From a virus (lineage: Duplodnaviria > Heunggongvirae > Uroviricota > Caudoviricetes): a DNA stretch of 8,164 bases. Positions 2,348 to 7,150 of the stretch are shown piece after piece. Each line of letters begins with the position of its first letter. Position 1 is the first letter of the stretch. A program made the position numbers and the translations under genes. The stretch lies in IMG/VR virus record IMGVR_UViG_2609459850_000003; one strand, 5' to 3'. Below the pieces are notes generated by a model. The model saw nothing but the letters and a program-made list of their open reading frames with translations, was not told where the DNA came from and did no database searches.

Positions 2348-2563
2348 TTACTCTCTTCTCGCAACCTTACGCCTGTCTTCTTTAATCTTGAAATAAAGGT
2401 TTGTCAGATACGTCAGCATGCCAAATACCAGACTACCCAATACACCTATTGCCGCCCACTGTGAGGGCGTGACTTTATCGAGCAACTGTAAAAACCAGTA
2501 GCCAGCACTGCCTGCAGAGGTGCTGTAGGCGATGCCCGTTGTTAACTTATCCATGGATTTCAT
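2348..2563 (-). CDS. Class II holin of the phage 21 S21 pinholin family, with dual-start motif
   Basis: 71-aa product [71 protein letters not shown]: two transmembrane domains (the first Gly/Ala/Ser-rich and SAR-like) and a basic C-terminus. The M1-K2-S3-M4 dual-start motif is characteristic of S21-68/S21-71 holin/antiholin. Strong RBS GGAGGTGAGG upstream of the ATG at 2563. The ORF-track extension to 2647 has no ATG start. Confidence 0.9.
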
Positions 2564-2648
2564 AGCCTCACCTCCGCAGATAACGGATGGTGTACACGGT
2601 TTGGTTCGAAGAAGGAAAGAAGTTACATTAGCGTAAGGCCCGAACATC

Positions 2649-2685
2649 TATTCAAAAAGAAAAACGCCAGCAATTATTCTGGCGT
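2649..2685 (-). terminator. Putative rho-independent terminator downstream of the AraC-family gene
   Basis: 7-bp perfect stem ACGCCAG (2664-2670) / CTGGCGT (2679-2685) with an 8-nt loop. On the minus strand it is followed by a T-rich tract (reverse complement of 2649-2663 is TTTTCTTTTTGAATA). About 70 nt downstream of the AraC stop. Confidence 0.5.
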
Positions 2686-2753: not shown

Positions 2754-3467
2754 CTAAGAAAATCTTGATAAATATTGGCGCGGAGGCACACCAAAATATC
2801 CTCTAAAAACACTTACAAAATATGATGCATTGTCATACCCGCATATTCCCGCCACCTTGCCGACAGTATGGTTACTGTAGATCAATAATCTTTGCGCCAT
2901 CATCATTCGTTCTTCAAGAATTAATTTACTAAACGATAACCCTTCGTCTTTTAATTTTCTTTTTAACAAACTCTCGCTCATATATAATCTTGAAGATATA
3001 TCACAAAGTCTCCATGACGCTGAGATATCCGAGTGAATAATAGCCTTAACTTTACAACCTAAGCTATTAAGACTTCCGAACAAAAAACTTTGCACTATTT
3101 TCTCTGAAGATAAGACAGCAAGACATGCAAGTGATATTTGATTTCTAACTACATCCACGGTTTTGCTATCACAATTCAAGCATGCAACCAAGTTCCTTAA
3201 CAAGGAAAAATCTTCACATTCTACTATCAAGTATGACGGATAAAACCTTCTTACAGAAAAAGGTGAGAGTGTGTAGTTTTTAAAGAAATCATTAACTGTT
3301 TTCTCCTCAACATCTACGATCATTAGATGATCTGTATTTGACGAAAAAAGATCTTTTAAATTGTATTCAATGAGGACAGCATTTCCTTTTTTAAACAAAA
3401 TATCTTCTTTACCAATTCGGACACCAAACGAGTTCAACACCAAAATGATAGAACATATGTATGGCAT
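2754..3467 (-). CDS. AraC/XylS-family transcriptional regulator (AppY/EnvY/Rns-like), AT-rich xenogeneic gene
   Basis: ATG at 3467 with RBS AGGTGG 5 nt upstream (the ORF-track start at 3476 is GTG). The C-terminal roughly 100 aa carry the double helix-turn-helix signature of the AraC family (...SFSKLILEERMMMAQRLLIYSNHTVGKVAGICGYDNASYFVSVFRGYFGVPPRQY). The gene and about 400 bp upstream are visibly AT-rich. Confidence 0.85.
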   Translation of the reverse strand: MPYICSIILVLNSFGVRIGKEDILFKKGNAVLIEYNLKDLFSSNTDHLMIVDVEEKTVNDFFKNYTLSPFSVRRFYPSYLIVECEDFSLLRNLVACLNCDSKTVDVVRNQISLACLAVLSSEKIVQSFLFGSLNSLGCKVKAIIHSDISASWRLCDISSRLYMSESLLKRKLKDEGLSFSKLILEERMMMAQRLLIYSNHTVGKVAGICGYDNASYFVSVFRGYFGVPPRQYLSRFS

Positions 3468-3873
3468 ATTATCCACCTGATATCATTGGGGTTACACCAG
3501 GTAAGTATAGGTGGAAAATCAATATTCGCCAGTTCAACAATAAGGAAAATCTCATTGCATCACAACTATAAAACCATGTGTTTAACTCACAAAAAACAAA
3601 TCATTAAACTAATCTGTTATATTATAATAGCTGCGTGCAATAATAATATTATATGCTCTTAATATTCACTTGAAATATCTTCATATAAAAACAGATTGAA
3701 TAAAATCTTTTGGGGCTGGTATGTTTACCAACATTAAATTGCATCTCAATGTTTTCTTTAGCGTGAACAGGATTTTTATACAAACTGACACTATGGGCAT
3801 CATAGCGTAGTTTTTACGATTGTAAATATCCTGCATACAGGAACTCATCACTTTCAGATGATATCGCATACAG

Positions 3874-5025: not shown

Positions 5026-5550
5026 ATGAAGTTATGGCCTGTGTTGACTGGCATTGCACTCTCTTTCACTCTTATAGCATGTAAGGCCCCGACACCACCT
5101 AAAGGTGTGCAGCCGATTACAAATTTTGACGCCAACCGCTACCTCGGAAAATGGTATGAAATAGCTCGCCTCGAGAACTGGTTCGAACGTGGTCTGGAAC
5201 AGGTCAGCGCTACTTATGAAAAACGGAACGACGGAGGGATTCGCGTACTTAACCGTGGATACGATCCAACGAAAAACAAATGGAGCGAGAGCGAAGGTAA
5301 AGCATACTTTACTGGAGATACTAAAACTGCAGCGTTGAAAGTTTCGTTTTTTGGCCCCTTCTATGGTGGCTATAATGTAATCAAACTGGATGATGAGTAT
5401 AAGTATGCTCTTGTCAGTGGTCCGAACAGAGAATACCTATGGATTCTGGCAAGGACCCAAACTATTCCAGATAATGTAAAAGCAGACTATGTGCGTACCG
5501 CTCAAAAGTTGGGATTCAATGTCAATGAACTATTATGGGTTAAACAATAA
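5026..5550 (+). CDS. Bacterial lipocalin (Blc-like outer-membrane lipoprotein)
   Basis: 174-aa ORF; ATG at 5026 with CAGGA 6 nt upstream. Lipoprotein signal with lipobox L-I-A-C. Lipocalin SCR1 motif NFDANRYLGKWYEIARLENWFERG and downstream KVSFFGPFYGGYNVIKLDDEY...YLWILART closely parallel E. coli Blc as recalled. Confidence 0.9.
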   Translation: MKLWPVLTGIALSFTLIACKAPTPPKGVQPITNFDANRYLGKWYEIARLENWFERGLEQVSATYEKRNDGGIRVLNRGYDPTKNKWSESEGKAYFTGDTKTAALKVSFFGPFYGGYNVIKLDDEYKYALVSGPNREYLWILARTQTIPDNVKADYVRTAQKLGFNVNELLWVKQ

Positions 5551-5578: not shown

Positions 5579-5605
5579 AAAAAAACCAGCCTTTGGGGAG
5601 GCTGG
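5579..5605 (-). terminator. Rho-independent terminator on the minus strand, candidate tR' of the phage late operon
   Basis: Stem CCAGCCT (5586-5592) / AGGCTGG (5599-5605) with a 6-nt loop, followed on the minus strand by seven U (A-run 5579-5585 on plus). About 100 nt downstream of the Q stop, matching the lambdoid pR'-tR' architecture. No T-run follows on the plus strand, so it is not a good terminator for the lipocalin gene. Confidence 0.6.
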
Positions 5606-5705
5606 CTAAATCAGGAAACAAGCTGTTATATGATAATAACTACGTTGCGATTCCAACATTTAAAATGTTAGACTAATGAAAATCAGACAGCAACTTTTCC
5701 TTTAA
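5606..5705 (-). promoter_or_regulatory. Putative late promoter pR' / qut region between Q and the tR'-like terminator
   Basis: Position is immediately downstream of Q and upstream of the intrinsic terminator. Contains a 7-1-7 palindrome AACATTT-a-AAATGTT (5655-5669) and several -10-like hexamers on the minus strand (TATAAC, TTAAAT). Exact -35/-10 not assignable by eye. Confidence 0.3.
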
Positions 5706-6083
5706 TTATTTCGAACAATCAGCATCCATCTCCAATCGGAGATCCAACACCATCAGCATGCCCTCCACTACGCCCTCAGCTTTCTGGAGCATCCTGCCAA
5801 CCCAACAATCAGATCGCCCATGCTTACGTGCAAGCGCCATAAAAGTCATGCCGCCGACATAATAGTCCACCAATAAATCATGTAAATCGCTGTTGTTTTT
5901 TTTCAGGCGAGCCATACATTCACAAATGATCATCGCGTCATCGTCACAGCATTGCGGACGAGATCTTACTTTTGAAGGAATTAATCCCTTAAAACCGGCG
6001 GCAATGGACGACCAGGTCACATCTTCATGATTATTAGCCGCCCATGCCCCCCAACGCTCAAGAACCATCTGAATATCACGCAT
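5706..6083 (-). CDS. Phage late-gene antitermination protein Q (phage 82/21 QuuD-like type)
   Basis: 125 aa from ATG at 6083 with RBS GGAG 7 nt upstream (the ORF-track start at 6098 is TTG). Sequence [24 protein letters not shown]...[32 protein letters not shown] closely resembles DLP12 QuuD as recalled, including the Cys cluster. Located immediately upstream of the late promoter/terminator and lysis genes. Confidence 0.8.
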
Positions 6084-6100
6084 CAACTTACTCCACAAAA

Positions 6101-7150
6101 TTAGGCCAGCACACCAATTGCCAGCGCGCGATCGATAAATCGAAAAATCAGCTCCAGTTGGGAGCCATACTTCTCTTCAAATGCCACGGTATCCGTATGC
6201 AACTCGTCGTGATGCTTTCTGCACAAAGGCAAAACAAAGAGATCATGTGCTTTGGTTCCCATTCCGCCCTGCCCGTGACCAATCAGATGATGCGGATCGT
6301 CGGCTGGCATACCGCAGCAAGCACACGGCTGTGTCTTAACCCAGCGTGTGTATTTCTCCTTAACCCACCGGTGACGTTTAGGCAGCTTCATGAAAGATTC
6401 CGGAGACTCTGGATCAACGGTGATGCTTACCACCGTCTTTTCCTGTGATGGGTTTTGTTGCTGGTGGGCGTGAGGCAACGGTGCAAGATTTTTTGTGCGC
6501 TGTTTCAATATGCTGGTGGCGGTCTGCTCTCCCGGTACGATGTCGCTTTCGCGGTACACCGAGCAGATTTTTTCCGCTGGTAATCCCAGCGAGCGACGTA
6601 ATACCGCTTCCGGTAGCGCGTCCGCCAGCTGATTGCGGACCGCCCACCAGGATAATTCAGCCAGAGATAATTCACGCTCCTGCGTACCGCTTATTGCGTG
6701 ACCGATGACGTCAATCATCCATGCTGACAGGTTTTGATGAGCAAGTTGCTCGAGTGATTCGGATGTCTGGTCACGCAGCTGGTTGTCGCAGTGCCAGCAC
6801 AACACCATTGCGCCGGTACCATATCGGTGAATAACGGTTTCGCTGTGATGATAATCGCCGTGTGGCCACTGGCAGGATTTAATATGGCGCAACAGCCAGT
6901 CAGACAATGCACCAGCACCACCAGCAGCACGAATTACCCGTGCGTTACTGAAAAACGGCAGCAATGTTTTGTCTTCCACCAGCGGCTGGCGAACGGCAGG
7001 AACGACCCCGGACGGCAGATTACGCATGCTTTTCGGTTCCGGCTCCACCAGTACCCGGGTATTGTGGAATACCGGCATGGATTCACGGCCCGGCTTAACG
7101 ACCACCAGCCCGAGTTCCGGTACCAGAACAGGTCGAAGTAATACCCGCAC
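6101..7150 (-). CDS. YdfU-like prophage protein (349 aa) with C-terminal Cys/His-rich YbcO-like putative zinc-binding/nuclease motif
   Basis: GTG start at 7150 preceded by GGAGG, with the upstream gene's TAA lying between the RBS and the start (coupled). Same length and genomic position (immediately upstream of Q) as Qin YdfU as recalled. C-terminus ...[45 protein letters not shown] resembles the small nin-region protein YbcO (DUF1364). Confidence 0.75.

Follow-up and report, generated by a model that had tools for sequence, protein, structure and literature searches.

A terminator of tR' ancestry behind the Q gene of a Qin-like prophage, and a candidate late promoter 1.9 kb away from it

The stretch of DNA analysed here, 8,164 nucleotides (nt) in length and hereafter called the window (IMG/VR record IMGVR_UViG_2609459850_000003), is the minus-strand late-control region of a Qin-like lambdoid prophage of Escherichia coli. 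We focused on the interval 5579-5705, which lies directly 3' of the gene for the antiterminator Q and contains an intrinsic terminator and a palindrome, and on its relation to a candidate late promoter (pR') located farther downstream. The gene order along the minus strand is DUF968, Q, a gap of 155 nt, blc (which is encoded on the plus strand), a YbgA-like gene, an AraC-family regulator gene, holin, DUF1327, lysozyme and spanin. The elements that matter most for the argument are as follows.

5706-6083, minus strand: Q antiterminator gene, 125 amino acids, with ATG at 6083 and TAA at 5708-5706; PF06530, E-value 6.9e-51
5652-5672, no strand: palindrome TCTAACATTT-T-AAATGTTGGA, 10-1-10 with one mismatch, with a perfect 7-1-7 core at 5655-5669
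5608-5645, minus strand: 'L-box' ACGTAGTTATTATCATATAACAGCTTGTTTCCTGATTT, a leader sequence adjoining the terminator, whose 3' portion, beginning with TAACAGC, shows homology to the 3' body of StxS
5579-5607, minus strand: intrinsic terminator, stem 5607-5584 and T7 at 5585-5579, homologue of tR' (the StxS terminator) of Shiga toxin (Stx) phages
5026-5550, plus strand: blc, outer-membrane lipocalin gene; PF08212, 7.5e-43; NCBIfam Blc, 312.6 bits, above the cut-off
3790-3826, minus strand: putative pR' with Q-loading site; dyad and -35 element TTTACAATCGTAAA at 3826-3813, -10 element TATGAT at 3804-3799, then GCC and CATAGT at 3795-3790
3598-3636, minus strand: second copy of the L-box, with the hairpin exactly missing (TGATTT-G-TTTTTT); alignment score 41, compared with 19.4 +/- 3.0 for shuffles
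2754-3476, minus strand: AraC-family regulator gene, nearest to YdeO/GadX; PF12833 and PF00165; YdeO model 1.8e-32, below the cut-off
2655-2685, minus strand: strong intrinsic terminator just 5' of the holin gene, stem 2685-2664, -11.3 kcal/mol
2348-2647, minus strand: holin gene (S21 type), which opens the lysis cassette; PF04971, 8.9e-34

The terminator behind Q is clearly non-random. A preliminary description of this DNA had reported a minus-strand terminator with a 7-base-pair (bp) GC-rich stem and seven U residues about 100 nt past the stop codon of Q, and we found it just so, the distance from the stop codon to the start of the hairpin being 99 nt. In the terminator scan, the stem at 5607-5584 has nine pairs, five of them G-C, and a loop of 6 nt; the strict 7-bp G+C-rich stem, CCAGCCT/AGGCTGG, pairs 5605-5599 with 5592-5586. 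The fold has an energy of -14.2 kcal/mol (z -4.8), and none of 200 shuffled sequences was equally stable. Since the hairpin on the plus strand is followed by CTAAATC and no U tract, the terminator acts on the minus strand only. It is kept in the phages IdasGreatGrand and Lambda_2E9. Positions 5629-5579 align with positions 2161-2214 of phage 933W, that is, with the 3' end of StxS and tR', with a score of 43, compared with 18 +/- 2.6 for shuffles. The 933W-type tR'/StxS 3' end has been mapped by Term-seq (PMC7547250). By this homology, the terminator and about 30 nt on its 5' side are assigned to the tR' lineage and would descend from the leader and tR' of a 933W-type late promoter.

The gene upstream of the interval does encode a Q antiterminator, as had been proposed; however, the protein belongs to the Q21/Q933W family and not to the lambda or 82 families. 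It matches the Q21 chains in the PDB at 5e-9 and is 79% identical to 933W Q and 85% identical to QuuD of DLP12. The short leader that the preliminary description expected is in keeping with this family, in which leaders of about 46-50 nt are usual (phage 21 and many relatives). In Q, an S-D-x motif opens the second helix of a putative helix-turn-helix, and the predicted recognition helix of the window Q begins S91-D92-C93-W94, which we call the 'SDC' type. An AlphaFold2 model of Q built from a 28-sequence alignment (pLDDT 55.6, pTM 0.37) supports only the helix boundaries, 65-87 and 92-112.

A conserved module was found 3' of Q in 23 loci of Escherichia, Shigella, Trabulsiella, Citrobacter, Pantoea, Providencia and Xenorhabdus and also in 933W. 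It is composed of TTTACG(TA/AT)CGTAAA, eight bases that complete a 16-nt spacer, TATnnT, G(T/A)TAAGAGTGG and a hairpin terminator. TTTACG is both the -35 hexamer and the first half of a perfect 14-bp dyad. The consensus of the module was derived from 109 distinct promoters, and the dyad matrix from 82 related promoters. In Sp5 of strain Sakai, whose Q is of the same type as that of 933W, differential RNA sequencing (dRNA-seq) located the transcription start, and the 3' end found by Term-seq lies 258 nt downstream of it (PMC7547250). When moved onto the 933W sequence, this start falls 6-7 nt past TATCAT.

The centre of the dyad goes with the third residue of the S-D-x motif. In 18 genome loci from six genera, SDG was accompanied by TA (11 loci) and SDT by AT (seven loci) with no exception, and both types occur within Citrobacter, Providencia and Xenorhabdus. 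Viral contigs were then scanned for each of three dyads, the nearest upstream Q was typed and duplicates were removed, which gave the following counts.

TTTACG-TA-CGTAAA: SDG 51, SDT 0, SDC 0
TTTACG-AT-CGTAAA: SDG 1, SDT 50, SDC 0
TTTACA-AT-CGTAAA (TTTACAATCGTAAA): SDG 0, SDT 0, SDC 15

The dyad centre (TA, AT or A..AT) thus matches residue 3 (G, T or C, respectively) in 116 of 117 non-redundant cases. TTTACAATCGTAAA was found with an SDC-type Q in 15 of 15 distinct cases and in none of the 102 cases with the other two types. The SDC class comprises five helix variants, SDCW[V/I/A]GR[M/L/V] and SDCRIGRL, and several promoter backgrounds, and the promoter lies between 694 and 4224 nt away from the recognition-helix motif of Q. 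On an independent E. coli contig (L121), a Q with the helix SDCWVGRL is followed by a type I restriction-modification insert, and the same dyad variant lies 3.4 kb downstream. In the complete genome of phage IdasGreatGrand, a single Q is accompanied by a single dyad, which lies upstream of all late genes. Because the match between dyad and helix persists across inserts of different size and content, we argue that the two are functionally coupled. Neither this match nor the Q-binding element of 933W was found described in the literature searched. Examples of the match can be seen at L003 1923-1936, L087-L106 and the viral loci L243-L442.

A dyad search of the window gave a single strong match, of 24.8 bits, at 3826. 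The promoter there reads TTTACA-16-TATGAT, a 10/12 promoter match, and its predicted start is A3792. Its layout is that of the 933W type, with the dyad TTTACnnnCGTAAA beginning from the -35 hexamer, eight further bases completing the 16-nt spacer and a -10 element of the form TAnnnT. The dyad variant is the one that belongs to the resident SDC-type Q. Three bases past the -10 element there is a -10-like hexamer, nAnAGT, which is CATAGT in the window, CAGAGT in IdasGreatGrand and TATAGT in Lambda_2E9, the consensus being AAGAGT. The three bases between them vary among the three phages (GCC, ACC and ATC), and the hexamer that follows keeps nA(T/G)AGT. The segment 3826-3799 is 93% identical in Lambda_2E9 and 96% identical in IdasGreatGrand, compared with 52-69% identity to Lambda_2E9 in its flanks. 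Because of the covariation, the single dyad match and this island of conservation, we place the cognate promoter at 3826-3790.

No terminator was found within about 50 nt of the start at 3826. The first strong one on the same strand is located at 2685-2664, about 1.1 kb downstream; it reads ACGCCAGAATAATxGCTGGCGT followed by a T run and is kept in Lambda_2E9 and IdasGreatGrand. From Q to the holin gene, each of the three phages has just two strong terminators on this strand, the one behind Q and the one at 2685-2664. Therefore, the YdeO/GadX-like gene sits between the putative pR' and the terminator that Q would need to overcome. The arrangement of pR', YdeO/GadX-like gene and terminator is also present in IdasGreatGrand and Lambda_2E9.

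In the interval 5579-5705, a pattern search allowing up to three mismatches detected no Q-binding element. Those candidate promoter positions in it that were scored with the dyad matrix gave strongly negative values, and the eight best matches of the matrix in the window all lie elsewhere. The preliminary description had placed pR' and the qut site of Q within this interval. Of that proposal, the tR' ancestry of the terminator and the position of Q upstream of it hold, whereas the site of Q action does not: the interval has no Q-binding element, its best sigma-70 match equals those of shuffled sequences, and the cognate promoter is placed at 3826-3790.

According to our preferred reading, to which we give a probability of about 0.6, the interval would hold a boundary terminator 3' of Q, and Q would act at 3826-3790, 1.9 kb farther on. 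The terminator behind Q would stop polymerase leaving the Q gene before it makes an antisense run into the convergent blc gene. At the distant promoter, the dyad TTTACAATCGTAAA over the -35 element would be the Q-binding element, and CATAGT, three bases past the -10, would be a sigma-dependent pause element. Transcripts from 3826 would cover the YdeO/GadX-like gene and stop at 2685-2664 unless the polymerase had been modified by Q. In the presence of Q, they would go on into the holin, lysozyme and spanin genes and, in complete phages, into the morphogenesis genes. The palindrome would be a by-product of mutation. The anatomy, the homologies, the covariation and the conservation are observations; from the sequences concerned we infer that the promoter at 3826 is active, that Q binds the dyad, that polymerase pauses at CATAGT and that transcripts end at 2685-2664.

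Several points weigh against this reading. The promoter at 3826 is without a close terminator, unlike those of its relatives. The assignment of residues 91-98 as the recognition helix rests on a partial alignment with Q21 and on a model of low confidence, and is to that extent provisional. The covariation was found among related sequences, and part of it may reflect shared descent and not contact chemistry. The change seen in the SDC class affects only one half of the dyad and improves the -35 match (TTTACG to TTTACA), so that it could concern promoter strength and not Q specificity. Finally, a working promoter in the interval itself is possible, since the candidate P1, described next, keeps its -35, the key -10 positions and a family-like start.

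5665-5693, minus strand: candidate promoter P1, TTGCTG (5693-5688), 17-nt spacer, TAACAT (5670-5665), predicted start near 5657-5659

If P1 were active, the interval itself might be a Q-dependent late unit, in which a leader of about 78 nt would end at 5607-5579 unless Q, loaded near the palindrome, allowed read-through. A late unit directly after Q would occupy the classical position known from phage 21, and the hairpin that would end its leader is homologous to tR'. Among minus-strand sequences of the interval, none is a better sigma-70-like match than P1; however, its score of 7.8 bits is no better than that of shuffled sequence, in which the best match averages 7.9, and promoter prediction by consensus scan detects nothing between 5606 and 5700. 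For comparison, known promoters taken as positive controls reach 6.0-8.6 and rank first in their own regions. Across 19 haplotypes, the -35 and the T1, A2 and T6 positions of the -10 are identical in the two main groups, the substitutions falling in the spacer, and the -10 element has one singleton change. TAACAT is followed by TTT-AAATGT-TGG, so that the order [-10]-N3-AAATGT-TGG parallels the [-10]-N3-AAGAGT-GG of the family, and the first transcribed bases, TTTAAATGTTGG, resemble the family consensus GTTAAGAGTGG. AAATGT (5661-5656) has A2 and T6 and lies 3 nt past TAACAT; it ranks 17th in the window with a matrix of the -10 and initial transcribed region, which discriminates poorly, the 3826 promoter itself ranking only fifth. 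Against these similarities stand the lack of a family-type dyad in the interval, the pairing of SDC-type Q only with TTTACAATCGTAAA, which is at 3826, the read-through itself, which would run 525 nt antisense through blc, and the lack of conservation of the palindrome, the proposed binding site. We regard a Q-dependent unit within the interval as distinctly unlikely.

At window position 5680, which is in the P1 spacer, all of T, G, C and A occur among close haplotypes, and the surrounding 20 nt are otherwise almost invariant. This position is also next to the predicted start of a candidate promoter on the opposite strand.

5645-5674, plus strand: candidate promoter TTGCGA-18-TAGACT, antisense into Q, score 9.94, predicted start near 5681

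This promoter has the highest sigma-70 score in the interval, on a par with the 9.82 of the 3826 promoter, and might produce an RNA antisense to Q, as an analogue of paQ of lambda, perhaps as part of a two-way promoter with P1. Most haplotypes have the identical -35, TTGTGA being found in one group, and the -10 keeps TAGnCT; a sister haplotype has TTGCGA together with TAGTCT. Were transcription to stop at a terminator-like site on the plus strand at 6417-6436, the RNA would span all of Q. The score is, however, within the range of the best matches in shuffles (95th percentile 10.9), and no CII-type site, TTGYN6TTGY, occurs there or inside Q. It is unlikely, in our estimation, that the element works in this way. 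A literature search for a start-site map of BL21(DE3) yielded none usable.

The window holds the L-box twice. The repeat is 38 nt long, and 33 of the 38 positions are identical between 5608-5645 and 3598-3636; the 3' copy is without exactly the 23-nt terminator hairpin. The first copy contains the -10-like hexamers TATTAT and TATCAT, and the second has the consensus TATAAT. The second copy lies about 155-195 nt past the predicted start of the 3826 promoter, and it is present in IdasGreatGrand and absent from Lambda_2E9. Because the L-box is repeated at 3636-3598 without the hairpin, the window has two pieces of a 933W-like unit. As judged by these alignments, one piece is the promoter with its hairpin-less leader (3826-3590) and the other is the leader end with the hairpin beside Q, with blc and the YbgA-like gene between them.

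TATCAT at 5635-5630 was considered as the -10 element of a 933W-like promoter and rejected. It becomes GATCAT in the sister haplotype, it has no usable -35 at 16-18 nt upstream (the spacing of TTGGAA is only 15 nt), and in alignments the segment matches the body of StxS and not pR'.

In a variant from E. coli E200139 (L110, 1400-1610), relE is fused at window 5645 straight to the L-box, which is followed by the terminator and blc. The L-box thus stays linked to the terminator and blc in this relE-adjacent deletion variant, and from this variant the terminator is judged to move with the blc cassette and not with Q. The viral contig L035 (1933-3215) has an insertion sequence with a mutator-type transposase at window 5650, between the palindrome and the L-box. 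The divergence of this contig at 5650 is due to the insertion sequence, and it was rejected as an informative recombinant.

There is also a more specific scheme, whose chance we put a little below even. In this scheme, Q proteins of the 933W subfamily would load at a dyad over the -35 of pR', and which dyad is recognised would depend on one residue where the recognition helix begins. In the window, inserted genes would have displaced the promoter by 1.9 kb from Q and its leader hairpin would have been lost; the YdeO/GadX-like gene would then be made constitutively. The orphaned tR' would remain as a terminator at the boundary, and a Q-independent small RNA might end there.

Such a small RNA is an alternative in its own right, although it is compatible with Q acting at 3826-3790. 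Either transcription from P1 or cleavage of the Q message at its 3' end would produce it, and the terminator would form its 3' end, in parallel with StxS. The short pR' product of Stx phages is an abundant regulatory RNA (PMC7547250), and the homology of 5629-5579 to StxS covers its 3' 51 nt only. A U-rich stretch followed by a hairpin and a U tail is the usual Hfq-dependent 3' module, and for 5660-5575 a structure is predicted whose stability exceeds that of shuffled sequences (z -3.9). However, the seed for rpoS is absent. In a seed-region duplex test against the verified rpoS activating region, the window reached -8.1 kcal/mol, with a shuffle mean of -11.4, compared with -25.0 for StxS and -31.8 for DsrA; duplexes of full-length RNAs with the 143-nt leader were uninformative, the DsrA control doing no better than shuffles. 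Both haplotype substitutions in the predicted 5' hairpin break pairs without compensation. No Rfam family was matched at the gathering threshold, only sub-threshold matches driven by the terminator being seen, and the StxS region of 933W itself is likewise without a family match in Rfam. A small RNA of this kind is conceivable but somewhat unlikely.

The palindrome reported in the preliminary description is indeed present. Its core, AACATTT-A-AAATGTT at 5655-5669, has no mismatch. In the whole window, one perfect palindrome with arms of at least seven was observed against 2.35 expected, which is no enrichment, and such a palindrome appears in about 5% of dinucleotide shuffles of the 155-nt intergenic stretch alone. 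The palindrome is therefore only marginally non-random. In the haplotype of 92% identity, which carries AATGTTTCAAATGTT, the palindrome is broken. The region there is ACTAATGTTT-C-AAATGTTAGA, with the left arm AATGTTT, so that the dyad is lost and AATGTT forms a direct repeat with 9-bp spacing. Carriers of this haplotype are 110 genomes in the 90-95% identity band and the deposited complete phages of the Lambda_2E9 group.

The left arm of the window, TCTAACATTT, is the exact reverse complement of the right arm of the 92% haplotype; thus, all three differences in the left arm create complementarity. A single template-switch event at a quasi-palindrome results in complementarity-making changes of this sort. 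Most likely, the palindrome arose by a template-switch mutation that copied one arm onto the other, and it is probably a mutational by-product.

It had also been suggested that the palindrome is a protein-binding operator over pR'; more broadly, a phage repressor, the AraC-like regulator or a host factor might bind it over an overlapping promoter. A perfect 7-1-7 dyad extendable to 21 bp, which shares positions with the -10 region of a candidate promoter on each strand and has a chance expectation of about 5% in the intergenic stretch, would suit an operator. However, the dyad is not kept in viable sister phages, where it has turned into a direct repeat, and the three left-arm differences, all copying the complement of the other arm, bear the signature of template switching. 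In a complete 48-kb phage genome, four matches at up to three mismatches were found against 3.6 expected, none of them in the immunity region, so that there are no extra copies beyond chance. We consider the operator function highly improbable. The sole near-copy in IdasGreatGrand (L118 24787-24801) is AACATCATAAATGTT, which has two mismatches and lies in an intergenic gap of the nin region, and this is within chance.

The locus resembles three known systems. The late unit of phage 21 consists of a -35 TTGACA, two direct 8-bp Q sites, a -10, the start, the pause element TAAGCT and a terminator, with a leader of about 46 nt, and structures of its Q complexes are available (6P18 and 6JNX; Yin et al. 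2019; Shi et al. 2019). The window Q is of the same PF06530 family, aligning to Q21 at 5e-9, and the logic would be alike: the promoter is constitutive, Q has its site between -35 and -10, a -10-like element lies close to the start, and a terminator precedes the lysis genes. However, Q21 binds the direct 8-bp repeats ATTGAGCA and AATGAGCA, whereas the 933W type and the window have the dyad TTTACnnnCGTAAA, which includes the -35 hexamer. In addition, the phage 21 unit starts 7 nt past the Q stop codon, whereas the window promoter is 1.9 kb from Q and its first strong terminator comes 1.1 kb after it.

A second parallel is 933W/Sp5 (Sy et al. 2020, PMC7547250), which shares with the window a Q of 79% identity, the homology of the terminator and about 30 nt next to it with the StxS 3' end/tR', and the layout of pR', one base differing in the dyad. 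The 933W promoter begins within the last part of Q, and 258 nt separate its start from tR', whereas the tR' homologue of the window adjoins Q without that promoter. The leader copy after the 3826 promoter is without the hairpin, and the rpoS-pairing seed of StxS is absent. Promoters of the 933W type (L003 1983-2005; L087, L093, L095 and L099) carry, at about +27 to +49, a strong hairpin and its T run. The main 3' end in Sakai is at +258, beyond this hairpin (PMC7547250).

Two genes, blc and the YbgA-like one, have been inserted between Q and the putative late promoter, and a hairpin terminator stands at the Q boundary. This recalls the accessory genes of lambdoid phages known as 'morons', each of which is said to have its own promoter and terminator, as Juhala and co-workers reportedly described in 2000. 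The blc gene is an inserted accessory gene convergent with Q. Other SDC-type loci have the same order, namely Q, hairpin, reverse-oriented insert and pR'. Unlike in morons, the boundary terminator of the window faces the strand of Q and not that of blc, and it is recognisably derived from tR'. No motif was found in common between the interval and the DNA directly 3' of other SDC-type Q genes, where the inserts are unrelated (methyltransferase, hok and HigA-like).

Taken alone, the interval is an ordinary terminator with a probably accidental palindrome. Its interest lies in this large subfamily of Q proteins, to which the Q responsible for Shiga toxin 2 expression belongs and in which the late promoter is often not beside Q. 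Therefore, calling the first terminator after Q tR' would mis-annotate the locus. The near-perfect three-way match of residue and dyad is a testable rule for which Q activates which late promoter, and it bears on cross-activation between co-resident prophages. If the rule is true, G would read TTTACG-TA-CGTAAA, T would read TTTACG-AT-CGTAAA and C would read TTTACA-AT-CGTAAA, and the preference among TTTACAATCGTAAA, TTTACGATCGTAAA and TTTACGTACGTAAA would switch with the helix residue. The YdeO/GadX-like gene would place an AraC regulator of the acid-resistance type in the leader of a late promoter, where, if this is true, it would be driven by pR' and expressed in the lysogen.

The Q genes of the DLP12 type, with the helix SDGYIGKR (L001 and L084-L086, quuD region), have no dyad directly downstream. 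At other loci with this helix, TTTACGTACGTAAA is found farther off. Since the dyad is missing beside quuD of DLP12 and distant elsewhere, the DLP12 late promoter may be displaced as well, behind nmpC.

The remaining genes of the window are as follows.

7150-6101, minus strand: DUF968 gene
4833-3874, minus strand: YbgA-like gene
between the holin and lysozyme genes, minus strand: DUF1327 gene
1470-937, minus strand: lysozyme gene
940-443, minus strand: spanin gene

The DNA from Q to blc is widespread in E. coli. As a query, it is at least 80% covered in 1075 of 5426 complete E. coli genomes, and the carriers include the Qin-like cryptic prophage of BL21(DE3), in which the part corresponding to the interval is NC_012892.2 1589076-1589153, minus strand. 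BL21(DE3) retains Q and the terminator behind it, whereas its counterpart of the 3826 promoter was lost to IS3. Sequenced phages carry it as well, with 97% identity in IdasGreatGrand and 94% in the Lambda_2E9 group.

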